Counted from the stretch's first letter, positions 1-35,676 are shown. The stretch: 64,000 nucleotides of DNA from Escherichia coli (GCF_030384885.1 NZ_CP128613.1), one strand, 5' to 3'. Notes: a model not told the origin generated them from the sequence alone. Made by a program: numbers and translations.

Positions 1-195
1 TCAATGAGCTACATGAAAGACTTGTGGAGCGAGGAAGAGAAAAAAGAATTCGCTAAACTGGATCAAATGGGCGTGAAAGTCTACAAGGTTGATAAAGCAC
101 CGTTTATCGAGAAAGTGCAGCCGATGTACGCAGCCTTTGCTAAGGAAAACCCTGCTCTCGCCCCAATGCTAACTGATATTCAGGCGACTAAGTAA
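1..195 (+). CDS. 3' fragment of a periplasmic solute-binding protein, TRAP-transporter DctP-like C-terminus; gene starts upstream of the window
   Basis: Frame is open to base 1 (track ORF 4..195 is only the part after an internal Met). C-terminal sequence (GVKVYKVDKAPFIEKVQPMYAAFAKENPALAPMLTDIQATK) resembles TRAP SBP C-termini; followed by a hairpin terminator. Not the gene I expect here in K-12. Confidence 0.4.
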   Translation, partial: SMSYMKDLWSEEEKKEFAKLDQMGVKVYKVDKAPFIEKVQPMYAAFAKENPALAPMLTDIQATK

Positions 196-12705: not shown

Positions 12706-13869
12706 TTAGCCAGCAATATAATGCGGAACGAAACGTGAGGTGTCTTTGGTGATCAGCGTGTTATCTTCACGGATCCCCATTCCGCACGCTTCATCATCGA
12801 CAATCCAGCTACCAATGAGTGTGTAGCTATCGCCAAACCGTGGTAGAGGTTGAAATGCCTGGTAGATCATCGGTTCATCGGCGTAATCACCCTCAGCGTG
12901 GTCAACGACGTTATTCTGACCATCGAAAATGGTGACGTTACCGCCCTCGCGTGAGTAGATCGGTTTACGCACATAGCTTTCGCCAGCGGCAATCTGCGGT
13001 TTTTCGCCATCAAACCAGGATGCAAGTAGGTTAGGATGACCAGGAAAGAAGCGCCAAAGCAGCGGCATTAACCCTTTGTTGCTCAAGATACTTTTCCATA
13101 ACGGCTCCACCCATTGCTCGCGGCGCTTGCGCAGCAGCGGACCGTTATCGTCACGCATCATCCATTCCAGCGGATACAGCTTAAATGCACGCTGGATGAC
13201 ATTATCATCAAGATCGGTCAGTACACCGCCGACGCCCAAACCGAGATCTTCAATGTAGATAAACCGTGACTCCTGCCCAGCCTGCTGAGCGCAGTCCTGC
13301 AAGTACAGCACAGTACTCCTGTCTTCGTCGGTATCCTGACAACAGCAGAAATAAAACGGTTCCCGACTGTAAAGCTCGCTAAAACGCGAAATCAGGCGTT
13401 CCTGAATGGCATTGTACTGATCGGCATCACGCGGAATAATGCCGCTACGCCGCGCATCTTCCAGCCACAGCCACTGGAAATAAGCCGATTCATACAACGA
13501 GGTTGGCGTATCGGCGTTGTACTCCAGCAGCTTCACCGGCGCATTGCCACACCAGGCAAAATCCATCCGACCATACAGCGAAGGATCGCGTGCGCGCCAG
13601 CTTTCAGCGATCACATCCCAGTACAGCGGTGGGATCGCCAGTTGCGTCAGGATCTCTTCGTCTTGAACCGCACGATCCACCACCTCAAGGCACATCTGAT
13701 GCAGTTCCGCAGTTGGTTTTTCGATCTGCTCTTCTATCTGACGCAGAGTAAAGCGGTAAGCCCGACTCTCATCCCAATAGATTTCATTGTCGATGATATG
13801 AAAGTCGAAACCGTTGTCGGCGGCGATCTGGTCCAGATCCCGTCGTACAGGAACGTTGTGTCTCAGCAT
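12706..13869 (-). CDS. yjfC: Glutathionylspermidine synthase-family (ATP-grasp) protein
   Basis: 387-aa ORF; last gene of yjfKLMC. Confidence 0.9.
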   Translation of the reverse strand: MLRHNVPVRRDLDQIAADNGFDFHIIDNEIYWDESRAYRFTLRQIEEQIEKPTAELHQMCLEVVDRAVQDEEILTQLAIPPLYWDVIAESWRARDPSLYGRMDFAWCGNAPVKLLEYNADTPTSLYESAYFQWLWLEDARRSGIIPRDADQYNAIQERLISRFSELYSREPFYFCCCQDTDEDRSTVLYLQDCAQQAGQESRFIYIEDLGLGVGGVLTDLDDNVIQRAFKLYPLEWMMRDDNGPLLRKRREQWVEPLWKSILSNKGLMPLLWRFFPGHPNLLASWFDGEKPQIAAGESYVRKPIYSREGGNVTIFDGQNNVVDHAEGDYADEPMIYQAFQPLPRFGDSYTLIGSWIVDDEACGMGIREDNTLITKDTSRFVPHYIAG

Positions 13870-13871
13870 GA

Positions 13872-14510
13872 TTAGCCTCCCCAGTGCCCACGGGCGCTGG
13901 AAGAACGACCATAGCCGCCGCGAGAAACAGTTGACGCTTTTCTGGTGGTAAAGCCGCCCGAGGAGTAAGACTCTTTTTTGCCAGAACCGGAGCGCCAGGA
14001 GTAATCACCGGAAGTATTGCGCCAGACGGGGCGGGAAGCAAATGAGGATCCACCGCTGTTATAAACGAACGGCTCATCGCGATCTTTACGAATAACCCGG
14101 CTTAATAAAAATCCAGAAATGACCGGGATCCAACTCTGTTCAACATTGTCGTAGTAGCAATTTTCGTACTTAGACTGACAATTCTGCTGAGTCATATTCT
14201 TCGGAACATCGGCATAAAATGCCGCTTTGGCATTGTTCCAGCCATGAGCACAGATATCTGAATTATTACCGTCATCAATACAATCCTGCACTGTCGAGTA
14301 AAACGTTCCGTCACCGTCGTTATCGACATCACCACTATCGCCACAACCTTTCAATACAAAAAAAGCTGCACCGCCCATTAGCGCCAACGTTAAGTATTTT
14401 TGTGCGTAGCGATTGCGTCGCGGCTCAAAAGGATTATTAGGTCTTCCAATGCGACTGATCGCTCCGTGACCAATTTTACTGTTATTTCTTGATTTGCGTT
14501 TTCTGGCCAT
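13872..14510 (-). CDS. yjfM: DUF1190 protein with Gly/Ser-rich C-terminal tail
   Basis: 212-aa ORF. Confidence 0.88.
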   Translation of the reverse strand: MARKRKSRNNSKIGHGAISRIGRPNNPFEPRRNRYAQKYLTLALMGGAAFFVLKGCGDSGDVDNDGDGTFYSTVQDCIDDGNNSDICAHGWNNAKAAFYADVPKNMTQQNCQSKYENCYYDNVEQSWIPVISGFLLSRVIRKDRDEPFVYNSGGSSFASRPVWRNTSGDYSWRSGSGKKESYSSGGFTTRKASTVSRGGYGRSSSARGHWGG

Positions 14511-14519
14511 GATCGTCCA

Positions 14520-14918
14520 TTACCATGTCATACAAGCTGCGTTAAAAATACCGCCAGCCAGCGCGGCGGTTCCCATAAACATTCCTGCTGCGGTATTGTG
14601 ATTAATAATTTTTTCGCTTAATGCTGGCATATAAAGTCTGACGCCAGCAAAAACGAGTAACTGAATCACCAGTGCGATCCCGCCCCAGGCAAAATAATCC
14701 GGAATACTCACCGCATTGATTGCCGCACTAGATAATGGGATCACGTAACCCAACAATGTACCACTGAACGCCAGTGCCGCCGCGGTATTATTGTTTTTAA
14801 TTAACTGCCATTCGTTGTGTGGTGTAATTTTGGAGTAGATAAACAGAAAAATAATCACCATAGCCACGCCAATAAAAAAATAGGCGCTAAAGGCAAGAAG
14901 TGAATCCAGTATATGCAT
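14520..14918 (-). CDS. yjfL: DUF350 inner-membrane protein
   Basis: 132-aa hydrophobic ORF. Confidence 0.88.
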   Translation of the reverse strand: MHILDSLLAFSAYFFIGVAMVIIFLFIYSKITPHNEWQLIKNNNTAAALAFSGTLLGYVIPLSSAAINAVSIPDYFAWGGIALVIQLLVFAGVRLYMPALSEKIINHNTAAGMFMGTAALAGGIFNAACMTW

Positions 14919-14935: not shown

Positions 14936-15595
14936 TTAACCAATAATATGAAGTGATGTCAGTGGGATATCAACACCCAGTGCGCGCGAAAATAACCACT
15001 CCGGCTCGCCGAGATCGTTAAAAGATTCCTCACCATTTAACAGCAAATATTCACAGGTATCTTCGGTCACCTGCCGTTCATAGCCCATGGTAAAATTATG
15101 CACTTCCCATTTGGCGTGGTTTTGATTTTCAACTTTTTCCAGCATATAGACGGGTTCGATATTTCCCGGTTCTTCACTGTTAAAAAATCGCTGCCAGCGT
15201 TTTTCCTGCCAGTTTAATGTCATTGCCCCCATCGCTTTGGCGTTGATCGCTTCGCGCCAGTGGCTCTCTTTGCTGATACCGTAGCTCTCTTCATAGACAA
15301 AGAGCTTTATATCATCAATGTCATCAATATCTTCGCCGCCGGTGGTATTGATTTGCAGAAATTCATCGCCCGAAGTGTAGTAGCGGAAAATCTGACTACC
15401 GCCGCCCAGATCGATGTGGCTGACAGCGGCTACCGTAAATTCTTCACCCGGCAGCGCAATCAGCAATTCATCTTCCAGCAAACGAAACGCTAACGTGTCG
15501 AGCGTAAAGCCGCTATTGAGATGAAGTCCCAGTGGGCCACGTGCGATTGCAGGTTTATCATCCTTACCAAACAGACGCTTGAAAAAACTTGTCAT
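14936..15595 (-). CDS. yjfK: DUF2491 protein
   Basis: 219-aa ORF; start codon overlaps stop of the upstream RCK-like ORF (ATGA). Confidence 0.9.
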   Translation of the reverse strand: MTSFFKRLFGKDDKPAIARGPLGLHLNSGFTLDTLAFRLLEDELLIALPGEEFTVAAVSHIDLGGGSQIFRYYTSGDEFLQINTTGGEDIDDIDDIKLFVYEESYGISKESHWREAINAKAMGAMTLNWQEKRWQRFFNSEEPGNIEPVYMLEKVENQNHAKWEVHNFTMGYERQVTEDTCEYLLLNGEESFNDLGEPEWLFSRALGVDIPLTSLHIIG

Positions 15596-16347
15596 ATGCT
15601 TCCCTCAATGTCCTGCCATGCCACTTCTTCAGCCAAAATACGGTTATTGCCAATAAGATGCAGCCACATACCGCCTTTAACTTCCGTTGCAATGACTGGA
15701 TTCAGTTCCATTCCCCTACCATTTTTACAACTGCTTATTCCCAGGACGGTGGCATCATGATGAAGTTTCATATAATGCATCAATGCGCCATAACGCATTG
15801 AGGTAACCCGTTCAGGAATCGGTAAAACAAACCCCGTATCCCCCAGCATTGGATTCATAATCGATGCCACTGATTGAGATGAACCGGGATCTTGTATTGA
15901 ACGGGAAAGTTGTTCTGCTGAAATATTTCGCACTATTTCAATACGTTGACAATGAACCTCTAATAAACGAGCGTAGCGTTCATCTTCCAGATAAGCGACG
16001 ATATGGCATCTTTCAGGAATAAAATCCGCCAGGGATAGTGCGGTCGTGAACGTCTGCTCATCTGTTTGCGAAAAGATGATGACACTTTGGCAATTTGCCA
16101 GTCCCATGCGGGTATGTTCATGCGGATCATTAAAATTACTAATACGAATGAAATCGACCCAATTATTTCCAGGCATCGGATGTTGAATATCATCCCGCTC
16201 ACACAAAAGTACCCGGCCAAATGCTCTTCGGGAATCAAACAACAATAATGAAATCATCTTTTCAGTCTGATGCCCGCGCCATCCAATGACCAGCATATGG
16301 TTGCGCAAATTGCTGTAGTCGCCCATTCCCGTCATTCCTTTCGCCAA
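15592..16347 (-). CDS. RCK/TrkA-N-like cytoplasmic regulatory domain protein, apparent C-terminal half of a Kch/MthK-type K+ channel; start ambiguous (TTG at 16347, ATG at 16335 or 16326)
   Basis: N-terminus HMLVIGWRGHQTEKMISLL fits the Rossmann beta1-Gly-loop-alphaA pattern of RCK/CASTOR-type domains; ORF is in the same frame as the pore ORF, 2 codons after its TAA. AAGGA lies 9 nt before the ATG at 16326. Not a gene I recall from K-12. Confidence 0.55.
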   Translation of the reverse strand: MAKGMTGMGDYSNLRNHMLVIGWRGHQTEKMISLLLFDSRRAFGRVLLCERDDIQHPMPGNNWVDFIRISNFNDPHEHTRMGLANCQSVIIFSQTDEQTFTTALSLADFIPERCHIVAYLEDERYARLLEVHCQRIEIVRNISAEQLSRSIQDPGSSQSVASIMNPMLGDTGFVLPIPERVTSMRYGALMHYMKLHHDATVLGISSCKNGRGMELNPVIATEVKGGMWLHLIGNNRILAEEVAWQDIEGSI

Positions 16348-16353
16348 TATGTC

Positions 16354-16662
16354 TTACACTAATGCAATGACTTTTCCCATTAAAGCGCCAAATAAACCAA
16401 CACTCACAGGAATCTGCCAGAGCGCTGTGAACAGACGTCCCCCCACCGTTTGGGGTGTGATATCACCAAACCCCAGCGTTGATCCCACAACCGAGCAGTA
16501 ATAAATAAAATTACTAAGTTGTCCTACCAACGCCTCTTCATGCAACGCAGTTAACACCAGATAACAAAACAGATACTGTCCTGTAAATAATCCAGTCAAT
16601 GCCGGCCAGGTAAGCCTGGAAAGGTGACGTCGGCAGGTTTTAATGATCCATGAGAAGAACAT
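16354..16662 (-). CDS. Two-TM K+-channel-like pore subunit (TM1, pore helix, TLGFGD filter, TM2), apparent N-terminal half of an interrupted channel gene
   Basis: 102-aa ORF: TM1 PALTGLFTGQYLFCYLVLTAL, pore helix and filter NFIYYCSVVGSTLGFGDITP, TM2 GGRLFTALWQIPVSVGLFGALMGKVIALV; ends at TAA directly after TM2. ATG overlaps yjfJ stop by 1 nt. Confidence 0.6.
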   Translation of the reverse strand: MFFSWIIKTCRRHLSRLTWPALTGLFTGQYLFCYLVLTALHEEALVGQLSNFIYYCSVVGSTLGFGDITPQTVGGRLFTALWQIPVSVGLFGALMGKVIALV

Positions 16663-17360
16663 TACTCGCCCTGTTGGCGTTGCAGTCTTGCTAATACATC
16701 CTGGGCGCTACTTTTGTTGCTACCGCCAATTCCGGCTTCCGCCAGTTTTTCATCAAGATCGCGACCATCTGCCACTTTTTCCAGCTGTACGGCAGCATCC
16801 AGGCGAGCTTGACGTTCGGCCTGACGCGTTTGCAGACGCTTTAAGGATTCTGCCGCTGTCGAAACGCTGGAAGATGCGCCAACAGTAGAGGTCGTTACGG
16901 CCTGTTGTGCACGCTGCATGGCTTCAGTAGCTTTAACGACTTCCATTTGTTGCTCAAACTGAGCGATACGCTGCGCTGTCGCTGTAACTGCTTTTTCCAC
17001 GCCATCACGAGAGACTTCCAGATTCGACAACACTTGCTCTTCAGCGGTAATAAGATTCTCAAGGCGCGCGATTTCTTCAGCAACTTCGTTAATCAACGAC
17101 GGATTAACGTTCTTGCTTAACGCTTCCAGCGCACGAGCTTCCAGACTGGCTTTGCGCTCACGTAAATCTTTCAGCTTATCGTGACTTAATTTCACCCGCG
17201 CCAGCAGATCAACGCGAGATTTTCCGGCTTTATCGAGTTCAGCTTTAGCGTCACGAATATGCTGTTCCAGCATGCGCACACCCTGGGTTTCTTCAATGGA
17301 TTCTTCCGCCTGAGAGATAAACGATTTCCCCAGCGTAAATAAACTTTTTAAAATTCCCAT
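16662..17360 (-). CDS. yjfJ: PspA/IM30-family coiled-coil protein
   Basis: 232-aa ORF MGILKSLFTLGKSFISQAEE..., PspA-like. Confidence 0.92.
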   Translation of the reverse strand: MGILKSLFTLGKSFISQAEESIEETQGVRMLEQHIRDAKAELDKAGKSRVDLLARVKLSHDKLKDLRERKASLEARALEALSKNVNPSLINEVAEEIARLENLITAEEQVLSNLEVSRDGVEKAVTATAQRIAQFEQQMEVVKATEAMQRAQQAVTTSTVGASSSVSTAAESLKRLQTRQAERQARLDAAVQLEKVADGRDLDEKLAEAGIGGSNKSSAQDVLARLQRQQGE

Positions 17361-17378: not shown

Positions 17379-17780
17379 TTAGTGTGAATATTCTTCTGTA
17401 ATTTCAGCAAGATCCAAAGCGTTATCTACCAGCGTGGTTATTTCCAGCAGGATATCTTCAAGAGAAGATTTAAGCGATAACGCCCCGAAAACAATGTAAT
17501 ACTCTTCCTGTTGCACGCTGGAGATCCCTACCGATGACAACGGCATCATCTTCTGATTTCTTAATAAGAAGGTATTAAATTCATCTGGATTGCAGATACT
17601 ACTTACCGGACAAATAAAGGTTTCGATAATCATTTGGCGGGAAGTAAAAAGAATATTGATTTGCAAATCGCCATAATCATTCATTTTAATAATTAATGCG
17701 TTTTCATTATTTGTTATATCAATATTTTGTTCAGGTATAGTTTGCAGCGCCGTCGCCAGCGCCAACGGATTCCATGTCAT
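17379..17780 (-). CDS. yjfI: DUF2170 protein
   Basis: 133-aa ORF. Confidence 0.9.
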   Translation of the reverse strand: MTWNPLALATALQTIPEQNIDITNNENALIIKMNDYGDLQINILFTSRQMIIETFICPVSSICNPDEFNTFLLRNQKMMPLSSVGISSVQQEEYYIVFGALSLKSSLEDILLEITTLVDNALDLAEITEEYSH

Positions 17781-17860: not shown

Positions 17861-17892
17861 AAAAAAAACCATCCAAATATGGATGGTTTTTC
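17861..17892 (-). terminator. Intrinsic terminator downstream of rlmB
   Basis: Hairpin ccatcc-aaatat-ggatgg flanked by A9 and T5 runs; terminates the nsrR-rnr-rlmB transcript. Confidence 0.7.
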
Positions 17893-18818: not shown

Positions 18819-21260
18819 TCACTCTGCCACTTTTTTCTTCGCCGCACGCTTCGCTTTGGTCGCTGCGGCTATTTTCTGCGTTTTCGCCGATGGCTTTTTC
18901 GATTTTCTCGCGTCTTTCTTCGCCGCTTTCGGCTTCGTTTTTTTCTCGCCACGGAAGGCGCTGTCTGGCTCAAAGTTTACCTTTTTACCGACCTGGCGAC
19001 GCTTGCCGCCTTTTTTGCCTGCATCGCCTTTTTTCGCTTTCTCGCGCGCGGTTTTACCGACGTTGCGCGGTGCGCGTTCGCTGGAGATCAGGCTAAAGTC
19101 GATTTTGCGCTCGTCCATATTAACCGCTTCGACGCGAACTTCCACGCGATCGCCCAGGCGATAAGTCTGGCCGCTGGATTCACCCATCAGGCGTTGTCCC
19201 ACCTGGTCAAAGCGATAGTAGTCATTGTCCAGCGAAGAGACGTGGACCAGACCATCGATGAACAAGTCATCCAGGCGAACAAAGAAGCCAAAACCAGTGA
19301 CGCTGGAAATTACGCCTTTAAAGATGTTACCTACCTGGTCGAGCATGAAGTCACACTTCAGCCAGTCAGCCACATCACGCGTTGCTTCGTCGGCACGACG
19401 TTCCGCCATCGAACAGTGCTGACCCAGTTGCAGCATCTCTTCCATCGAATAATGGTAGCCGCCGGTTTCAGTGGTATTCCCCTGATGCCCCTGCTCTTTC
19501 GCCAGCAGATACTTAATGGCGCGGTGGAGCGTCAGATCAGGATAACGACGAATCGGCGAAGTAAAGTGCGCATAGGACTGCAATGCCAGACCGAAGTGAC
19601 CGCGGTTTTCCGGATCGTAAATCGCTTGTTTCATCGAGCGCAACAGCATGGTTTGCAGCATTTCTGCGTCAGGACGGTCAGCAACCGATTCCAGCAGTTC
19701 CGCGTAGTCACGCGGTTCCGGCTTGTTACCGCCAGGCAATTCCAGCCCCAGTTCCGCCAGCACTGAACGGAAAGAGGTTATCGCTTCGGTGCTCGGCTTG
19801 TCGTGAATACGGAACAGTGCCGGTTCTTTGGCCTTCTCAACGAAACGCGCCGCCGAGATATTCGCCAGAATCATGCACTCTTCAATTAACTTGTGTGCGT
19901 CGTTACGCTGGGTCTGTTCGATACGCTCAATACGGCGTTCAGCGTTGAAAATGAACTTCGCTTCTTCGCTCTCAAACGAGATCCCGCCGCGTTCTTCACG
20001 GGCTTTATCCAGCACTTTATAGAGGTTATGCAGCTCTTCGAGATGCTTAACCAGCGGGGAGTACTGCTCGCGCAGATCCTGATCGCCCTGCAGAATATGC
20101 CAGACTTTGGTGTAGGTCAGACGCGCGTGAGAGCTCATCACCGCTTCATAGAATTTGTAGCCAGTCAGGCGGCCTTTCGACGAAACCGTCATCTCGCACA
20201 CCATACACAGGCGGTCTACCTGCGGGTTGAGCGAACACAGGCCGTTAGAGAGCACTTCCGGCAGCATCGGGATAACCTGCGAAGGGAAGTACACCGACGT
20301 ACCACGGTTACGCGCTTCTCTATCCAGCGGTGTTGGCGGACGCACATAGTAACTGACGTCGGCAATTGCGACCCACAAACGCCAGCCGCCGCCGCGTTTT
20401 TTCTCGCAGTAAACTGCATCGTCAAAGTCACGGGCGTCTTCGCCATCAATGGTGACCAGCGGTAAATCGCGCAGATCGACACGGCCAGCTTTCGCCTCTT
20501 CCGGTACTTCTTCTTTCAGCCCGGCAACCTGTTGCTCAACAGCCTGCGGCCAGATGTACGGAATTTCATGGGTACGCAGGGCGATATCAACCGCCATGCC
20601 GGTGCCCATATTATCGCCCAGCACTTCGACGATTTTACCCACCGCTTTGGTACGGCGAGTCGGGCGTTGGGTCAGTTCAACCACCACCACAAAGCCCATC
20701 CGCGCGCCCATGATCTGATCGGGCGGGATTAAAATATCGAAGCTCAGACGGCTGTCGTCAGGAACCACAAAGCCGACACCCGCTTCAGTAAAGTAGCGAC
20801 CAACAATCTGGCTGGTTTTTGGCACCAGTACGCGGACAATACGCGCTTCACGGCGGCCTTTACGGTCAGCGCCCAGCGGCTGTGCCAGCACCTGATCGCC
20901 ATGAATGCAGGTTTTCATCTGCTCGCTGGAGAGATACAAATCATCTTTACGCCCTTCAACCCGCAGAAAGCCGTAGCCATCACGGTGGCCAATAACGGTA
21001 CCTTTCACCAGGTCGAGGCGTTCCGGCAGCGCATAGCACTGACGGCGAGTAAAGACCAGTTGACCATCGCGCTCCATCGCGCGCAGGCGGCGACGCAGGC
21101 CTTCAAGCTGCTCTTCGCCTTCAATGTGCAGTTCTACCGCCAACTCATCACGGCTGGCCGGTTTTTCACGTTTGGTTAAATGTTCGAGGATAAATTCCCG
21201 ACTAGGGATGGGATTCGCGTATTTTTCAGCTTCGCGTTCCTGGAAAGGATCTTGTGACAT
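18819..21260 (-). CDS. rnr: Ribonuclease R (3'-5' exoribonuclease, Lys-rich C-terminal tail)
   Basis: 813 aa from [14 protein letters not shown]...; track ORF carries a 14-codon upstream extension. Confidence 0.95.
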
Positions 21261-35256: not shown

Positions 35257-35332
<76 letters not shown>

Positions 35333-35367
35333 TTGGGTGGTCTGTGCTTTGCAGCACTTTCAAATTT

Positions 35368-35443
<76 letters not shown>

Positions 35444-35600
35444 TTAATCTTCGTCTTTCGAACCGCTACTGCCTTGGCTGCCTTCACTCACCTTAGTCAC
35501 TTACTTTTGTAAGCTCCCAAGGATTCGTTTAGTTGCCGCCTTGTCGCAATTCGAAATACTGCGATTGGGTGGTCTGTGCTTTGCAGCACTTTTCAAATTT

Positions 35601-35676
<76 letters not shown>

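Follow-up and report, generated by a model that had tools for sequence, protein, structure and literature searches.

The 1,071 bp that lie between yjfJ and yjfK in this Escherichia coli genome (GCF_030384885.1, NZ_CP128613.1) are best read, with a probability that we put at roughly 82%, as a single MthK-type K+ channel gene, an ancestral member of its operon that was lost from E. coli sensu stricto and is broken by a nonsense mutation in the present strain. The gene occupies positions 15592-16662 on the minus strand of the analysed stretch of 64,000 nucleotides (hereafter the window), to which all positions refer. It represents no new kind of system: RefSeq already names the protein, its fold matches MthK, and the operon class is in the literature.

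The initial annotation, made from the sequence alone, had pointed to about 1.07 kb of DNA absent from K-12 at this junction, and the comparison confirmed it (1,071 bp versus a 50-bp spacer). It had also divided this DNA into a module of two ORFs, one of 102 aa (16354-16662, minus strand) and one of 251 aa with a TTG start, containing HMLVIGWRGHQ (15592-16347, minus strand), a division that did not hold. Both ORFs are in one frame (16662 - 16347 = 315 = 3 x 105), and between them lie one TAA (16354-16356, minus strand) and three sense codons. Strain 2013C-4282 has one uninterrupted CDS of 356 aa here (WP_000466338.1, annotated as "potassium channel family protein"), and over the whole 1,071 bp exactly one base differs from the window: position 16356, which on the plus strand is A in the window and G in intact alleles, turning codon 103 from CAA into TAA (Gln103>stop). 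Intact alleles thus have 356 codons and a stop, and the gene is cut at codon 103 here. The three carrier genomes that were opened, out of 18, have a 1,071-bp single CDS annotated as "potassium channel family protein". Single fused chains were found in 23 of 23 enterobacterial relatives, among which Gln103 is conserved in at least 90%, and in 83 of 83 sequences of a wider alignment (335-372 aa). At its ends the gene is interlocked with its neighbours, its ATG overlapping the yjfJ stop by 1 nt (TAATG) and its stop overlapping the yjfK start (ATGA). Given the common frame and the one-base difference from an intact 356-aa CDS, this stretch is a single gene carrying one nonsense SNP and not a two-gene module, and in the annotation the two ORFs should become one gene flagged as nonsense-disrupted.

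The pore module (residues 1-102; 16357-16662, minus strand), delimited by Pfam and by the secondary structure of an AF2 model, agrees with the 102-aa pore protein proposed at the outset, both in its Ion_trans_2 match (E = 5.7e-11, residues 37-100), which was also obtained for 83 of 83 relatives, and in its selectivity filter. The model places an N-terminal helix before TM1 (approximately 19-39), a pore helix at 49-61 and TM2 from residue 73, within a helix spanning 73-111, and the module holds most of TM2 but not all of it. Codons 62-67 (ACG CTG GGG TTT GGT GAT; 16462-16479, minus strand), read directly from the sequence, encode TLGFGD, a K+ filter of the form T-x-G-[YF]-G-D; G64, G66 and D67 never vary across the 83 family members, 79 of which also have T62. 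The glycine hinge that had been ascribed to TM2 is missing, the canonical position being Ser87 here and Gly in 50 of the 83 relatives.

Residues ~121-356 (15595-16302, minus strand) are predicted from the AF2 model and from Foldseek to form a TrkA_N-like RCK domain, made up of a Rossmann-like N-lobe, a QDPGSS hinge motif and a C-lobe. The initial proposal of a K+-channel pore and an RCK-type domain was supported: Ion_trans_2, the MthK fold and TrkA_N (E <= 0.001 in 40 of 83 relatives) speak for it, but on the window protein itself TrkA_N reached only E 0.02-0.04. By itself the Pfam match of the window protein is weak, and what carries the RCK assignment is the profile of the family together with the predicted fold. 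Searched against PDB sequences, the family profile found MthK first (E = 3e-7), over the pore and the RCK N-lobe. An AF2 run on the 83-sequence alignment gave a mean pLDDT of 95.5 and a pTM of 0.85, and replaced an earlier, mediocre run on 23 close homologues (pLDDT 70.9). Foldseek against the PDB ranked full-length MthK best (E = 5.6e-16, TM 0.65-0.71, ~330-344 columns), followed by Slo1/BK, GsuK and the CASTOR ring, and superposed the isolated MthK RCK domain (2aef_B) with an rmsd of 3.1 A over 229 columns. Near-invariant positions of the family are H122, P162, D201, D258 and G260 (the latter two within QDPGSS), N321 and R341. Together, profile and model suggest that the intact protein is an MthK-type channel subunit with an N-terminal helix, a 2-TM pore and one C-terminal RCK domain.

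Two ligand classes were considered for this domain and rejected. The nucleotide-binding KTN subtype, which calls for GxGxxG and for an acidic residue closing beta2, does not fit: the window protein has G127-W-R-G-H-Q instead, and at position 155 the family carries mainly A, S, V or T. Nor does MthK-like Ca2+ gating: in the profile alignment E210 and E212 of the site-1 triad D184/E210/E212 correspond to E226 and E228 (conserved), but D184 aligns with Phe197, a position occupied by Asp in 23 of 83 family sequences. Since the D184 ligand is replaced by Phe197, we describe the protein as a predicted RCK channel of MthK architecture and do not call it Ca2+-gated. By analogy with the MthK family, the intact protein would form a K+-selective tetramer in which the RCK ring would open the pore by pulling on TM2 upon binding some cytoplasmic ligand.

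With the Ca2+-gated MthK of Methanothermobacter thermautotrophicus (PDB 1LNQ, 3RBZ, 6U68), the predicted channel has in common a similar size and an architecture in which a short helix at the N-terminus precedes a 2-TM pore with a T-x-G-[YF]-G-D filter, which a helical linker connects to a single RCK domain, and both proteins are devoid of GxGxxG (GWRGHQ in the window protein, GWSEST in MthK). Identity between the two is only 16-19% and, unlike MthK, the window channel sits within a PspA/polyamine operon; a soluble RCK made from an internal start is a feature of MthK that the window channel might possess as well. Kch of E. coli, the best NCBIfam match (covering residues 45-256), also combines a pore with an RCK domain but differs by four extra N-terminal TM helices, which make it a 6-TM protein, and by its locus; orthology was rejected (NF007828, 34.4 bits versus a cut-off of 425). 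In the K+ uptake systems KtrAB and TrkAH, too, RCK/KTN domains regulate a membrane K+ pore, yet there two genes encode pore and RCK by nature, the pore subunit is a fusion of four pore repeats and the RCK domain binds nucleotides via GxGxxG. A two-gene system of this kind was discarded for the window, which is one SNP away from a fused gene in a family whose 83 sampled homologues are all fused.

As regards the consequences of the stop, codon 103 falls inside the helix that links TM2 to the RCK domain in the AF2 model (73-111), and the Q103* product would be at most a 102-aa pore stub without sensor. The channel gene of the window is most likely a recent pseudogene, which we infer with one reservation, as an internal start at Met113 might still yield the RCK domain. 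Since the channel stop and the start codon of yjfK share bases, the early stop may moreover lower expression of the translationally coupled genes from yjfK to yjfC.

The internal start at issue is a candidate ribosome-binding site, AAAGGA (16336-16341, codons K108-G109), followed by the ATG of Met113 (16324-16326), the whole spanning 16324-16341 on the minus strand. MthK makes a soluble RCK from Met107, at an equivalent place (PMC2573919), and by this analogy we hypothesize that the RCK domain might still be made from Met113 in the Q103* allele. If so, the window could encode a functional split channel, in which a pore subunit of 102 aa and an independently made, soluble RCK domain would continue to assemble or to act, and the MthK precedent is one of several points in its favour. 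The pattern AAAGGR-N9-ATG/TTG is kept at the nucleotide level in four genera (Escherichia, Citrobacter, Enterobacter and Atlantibacter), but the protein sequence by itself already limits what the K-G codons can be. Pairing with the anti-SD sequence is stronger at Met113 (-5.6 kcal/mol) than at the annotated start (-4.1 kcal/mol), yet over the 12 genes compared the duplex energies, though suggestive in enteric bacteria, did not reach significance, and the SD signal of distant homologues was heterogeneous and not significant. Met is over-represented in the linker, where 33 of 83 sequences have it at position 110 and 20 of 83 at position 113, and the allele persists in several sequenced samples; against this, the allele is confined to near-identical DNA and hence recent, none of the sampled homologues is naturally split and an RCK ring that is not covalently joined to the pore has no means of pulling on TM2 as has been shown for MthK. 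On balance, we regard a working split channel as quite improbable and retain the reading of a single gene that is broken in this strain.

The closest complete genome has CAA at codon 103 and only four positions differ in 64 kb (three substitutions and one 1-nt indel between the window and 2013C-4282), as might be expected if the stop were a sequencing or assembly error and the gene were intact in the organism. This explanation is nevertheless very unlikely. The truncated 102-aa product was called in seven sequencing-run assemblies, and in the five SRA assemblies whose DNA was read, which are independent of one another and 99.8-100% identical to the window, the identical TAA was present each time. 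With the same stop in five independent, near-identical SRA assemblies, the TAA allele is real and recent; it would have arisen by a C>T change on the coding strand, converting Gln103 into TAA, in the sublineage of the window strain.

A megablast search with 15592-16662 as query recovered the full stretch from 18 of 5,426 complete E. coli genomes; in each of the 18 it is chromosomal and flanked by yjfJ and yjfK. Both of these genes were matched in 5,374 genomes, of which only those 18 contain the full stretch, and among the matches listed all 38 other genomes matching both genes have yjfJ and yjfK ~50 bp apart. The 18 carriers are also the closest genomes by mutL (97-100%, versus <=95.7% for nearly all others), and PMC10100065 lists two carriers, 2013C-4282 and EC42405, under Escherichia cryptic clade I. 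The K-12 spacer is unrelated to the channel gene and contains a hairpin; no channel remnant was detectable in its 50 bp, for which the local alignment score equalled the mean of shuffled controls. The junction comparison that had been suggested across genomes thus gave absence in K-12 and presence in a small group of E. coli, and presence in Salmonella as well. In Salmonella enterica the arrangement is the same from nsrR to yjfN, and the Salmonella sequence cluster counts 1,960 members. Outside these, the order rlmB-yjfI-yjfJ-channel-yjfK-yjfL-yjfM-yjfC was found in two species of Citrobacter, in Enterobacter, in two species of Atlantibacter and in another Escherichia lineage, and across those genera the identity of the channel declines in step with that of the neighbouring genes. 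A scan of a genome collection with strict peptide patterns returned six loci and is a sample, not a census, of Escherichia species; beyond E. coli, clade I and one GTDB representative of the genus were sampled directly. Among seven homologues at 25-36% identity, five are yjf-linked: two (those at 29-34%, both metagenomic) stand in the identical seven-gene order, and three further ones adjoin DUF2170, PspA, DUF2491, DUF350, DUF1190 or GSP_synth genes.

A 500-bp sliding comparison gave a uniform 93-98% flank identity to K-12 with no step at the junction, and local recombinational import was rejected. Taking together the synteny in other genera, the uniform divergence of the flanks and the start and stop overlaps with its neighbours, the channel gene appears to be ancestral and not inserted. 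Of the two origins that the initial annotation had left side by side, an ancestral gene lost from K-12 therefore stands, and a horizontally acquired, strain-specific accessory insertion into a K-12-like yjfJ-yjfK junction can be dismissed as extremely improbable: the rarity of the gene in complete E. coli genomes and its G+C of ~44%, below the genome average, would suit it, but G+C is just as low throughout the yjfI-yjfM cluster, all carriers belong to a single divergent lineage, mobile-element features are absent, and the gene recurs at this position and in this order not only in Salmonella, Citrobacter, Enterobacter and Atlantibacter but also in bacteria much further removed. The simplest history is one of retention in clade I, to which the window belongs, and of loss on the branch of E. 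coli sensu stricto, including K-12. This locus was said to be the sole difference in gene content from K-12, which is not the case, as window positions 1-194 are the end of a TRAP-transporter gene that is absent from K-12 at that site.

The neighbours of the channel lie, like it, on the minus strand. Upstream are yjfI (17379-17780; DUF2170, CesT/Tir-like chaperone, assigned from RefSeq, Pfam and PMC11237479), the first gene of the operon, and immediately before the channel yjfJ (16662-17360; PspA/IM30 family, from the RefSeq annotation of a near-identical genome and from Pfam PspA_IM30 on contigs with the same allele). Downstream follow yjfK (14936-15595; DUF2491), whose start overlaps the channel stop, yjfL (14520-14918; DUF350), yjfM (13872-14510; DUF1190) and yjfC (12706-13869; glutathionylspermidine-synthase-like ATP-grasp). 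Consistently, the Pfam order on same-allele contigs is DUF2170, PspA_IM30, channel, DUF2491, DUF350, DUF1190 and GSP_synth, all on one strand. A strong terminator-like hairpin separates rlmB from yjfI (17863-17892, minus strand), and a promoter and terminator scan of the operon detected nothing inside the channel gene above shuffled expectation. The channel is the third gene of an ancient seven-gene operon, vertically inherited in Enterobacteriaceae.

This operon class, including its K+ channel, has already been described by Ravi et al. (mSystems 2024) as the 'third group' of CesT/Tir-PspA systems, together with the proposal that such PspA systems connect membrane dynamics with polyamine status (PMC11237479). 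Compared with the third-group operon as it is presented in the sections of that paper devoted to it, nothing essential differs, except that the window has a nonsense channel allele; those sections do not take up the channel's disappearance from E. coli sensu stricto. In K-12, yjfIJKL behave as one transcriptional unit, which was up-regulated in heat-adapted lines (PMC12492005). PADLOC anti-phage models matched neither the channel nor the six neighbouring proteins.

From this context, the channel may have a role in the membrane-stress/polyamine module of YjfJ, coupling K+ flux to the operon. A more specific version, which we consider unlikely, would make it the ion-conducting effector of that module. 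Its gating signal would then be not Ca2+ but a product of the operon's metabolism (such as a polyamine or a polyamine conjugate made by the YjfC ATP-grasp ligase), and translation would give both the full-length channel and, from Met113, a soluble RCK. Were this so, Q103* would be a natural uncoupling of pore and sensor, and the channel-less K-12 operon would be crippled, a possible reason why yjfIJKLMC is without a known function; to our knowledge, none has been shown for any of the K-12 yjfIJKL genes. On the main reading, that of an ancestral channel gene that E. coli sensu stricto has lost, the K-12 yjfIJKLMC operon is a derived, channel-less form of a seven-gene system conserved from Salmonella to distant bacteria, and Salmonella or Escherichia clade I strains would therefore be better models than K-12 for the function of this PspA-linked operon.

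In E. coli sensu stricto, a 50-bp yjfJ-yjfK spacer stands where the channel gene would be. In K-12, where it occupies positions 20661-20710 of the locus examined (L004), this spacer contains a perfect 8-bp stem (GCCAGCCT...AGGCTGGC) with a T-run at its flank, and comparison of its 50 bp with the channel gene revealed no similarity. The initial annotation had considered the yjfJ-yjfK junction the sole difference in gene content from K-12; this did not hold, since a second one, unlisted there, lies at window 1-194: this segment is the 3'-terminal part of a TRAP-transporter substrate-binding gene, adjoining rplI, while the corresponding K-12 position carries yjfZ and a TetR pseudogene. The array of three tRNA-Gly(GCC) genes (window 35257-35676, minus strand) also differed: genes two and three are separated by 157 nt in the window versus ~36 nt in K-12, with no recognisable tRNA remnant in the ~120 extra nt.

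Over the 64 kb, the window and strain 2013C-4282, its nearest complete genome, showed only three differences besides the base in the channel gene: a T/C change in ulaG (8225), a 1-nt change in the length of an A-run between ampC and blc (50314), and a G/C change in aspA (60013).

We also compared the operon with that of SCPM-O-B-8794, a GTDB species representative labelled E. coli (L005, 1958-4793). The channels were 97-98% identical, but yjfI was only 80% and yjfJ 93% identical to their window counterparts, suggesting that the 5' end of the operon has a mosaic history. Three environmental genomes (LR778142, LR778146, and LR778152) had a mutL 98.2% identical to that of the window, well above other E. 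coli. In the water isolate SC477 (LR778152, locus L013), the only one of the three to be examined, the yjfJ-yjfK junction was empty and of K-12 type; this combination of a window-like mutL with an empty junction probably reflects recombination at mutL.

At window 16324-16341 (minus strand), within the linker joining the pore to the RCK domain, the ATG of Met113 is preceded, 9 nt upstream, by AAAGGA, a pattern kept at the nucleotide level in four genera. AAAGGA and Met113 may constitute a candidate MthK-like internal translation start, giving a soluble RCK domain.
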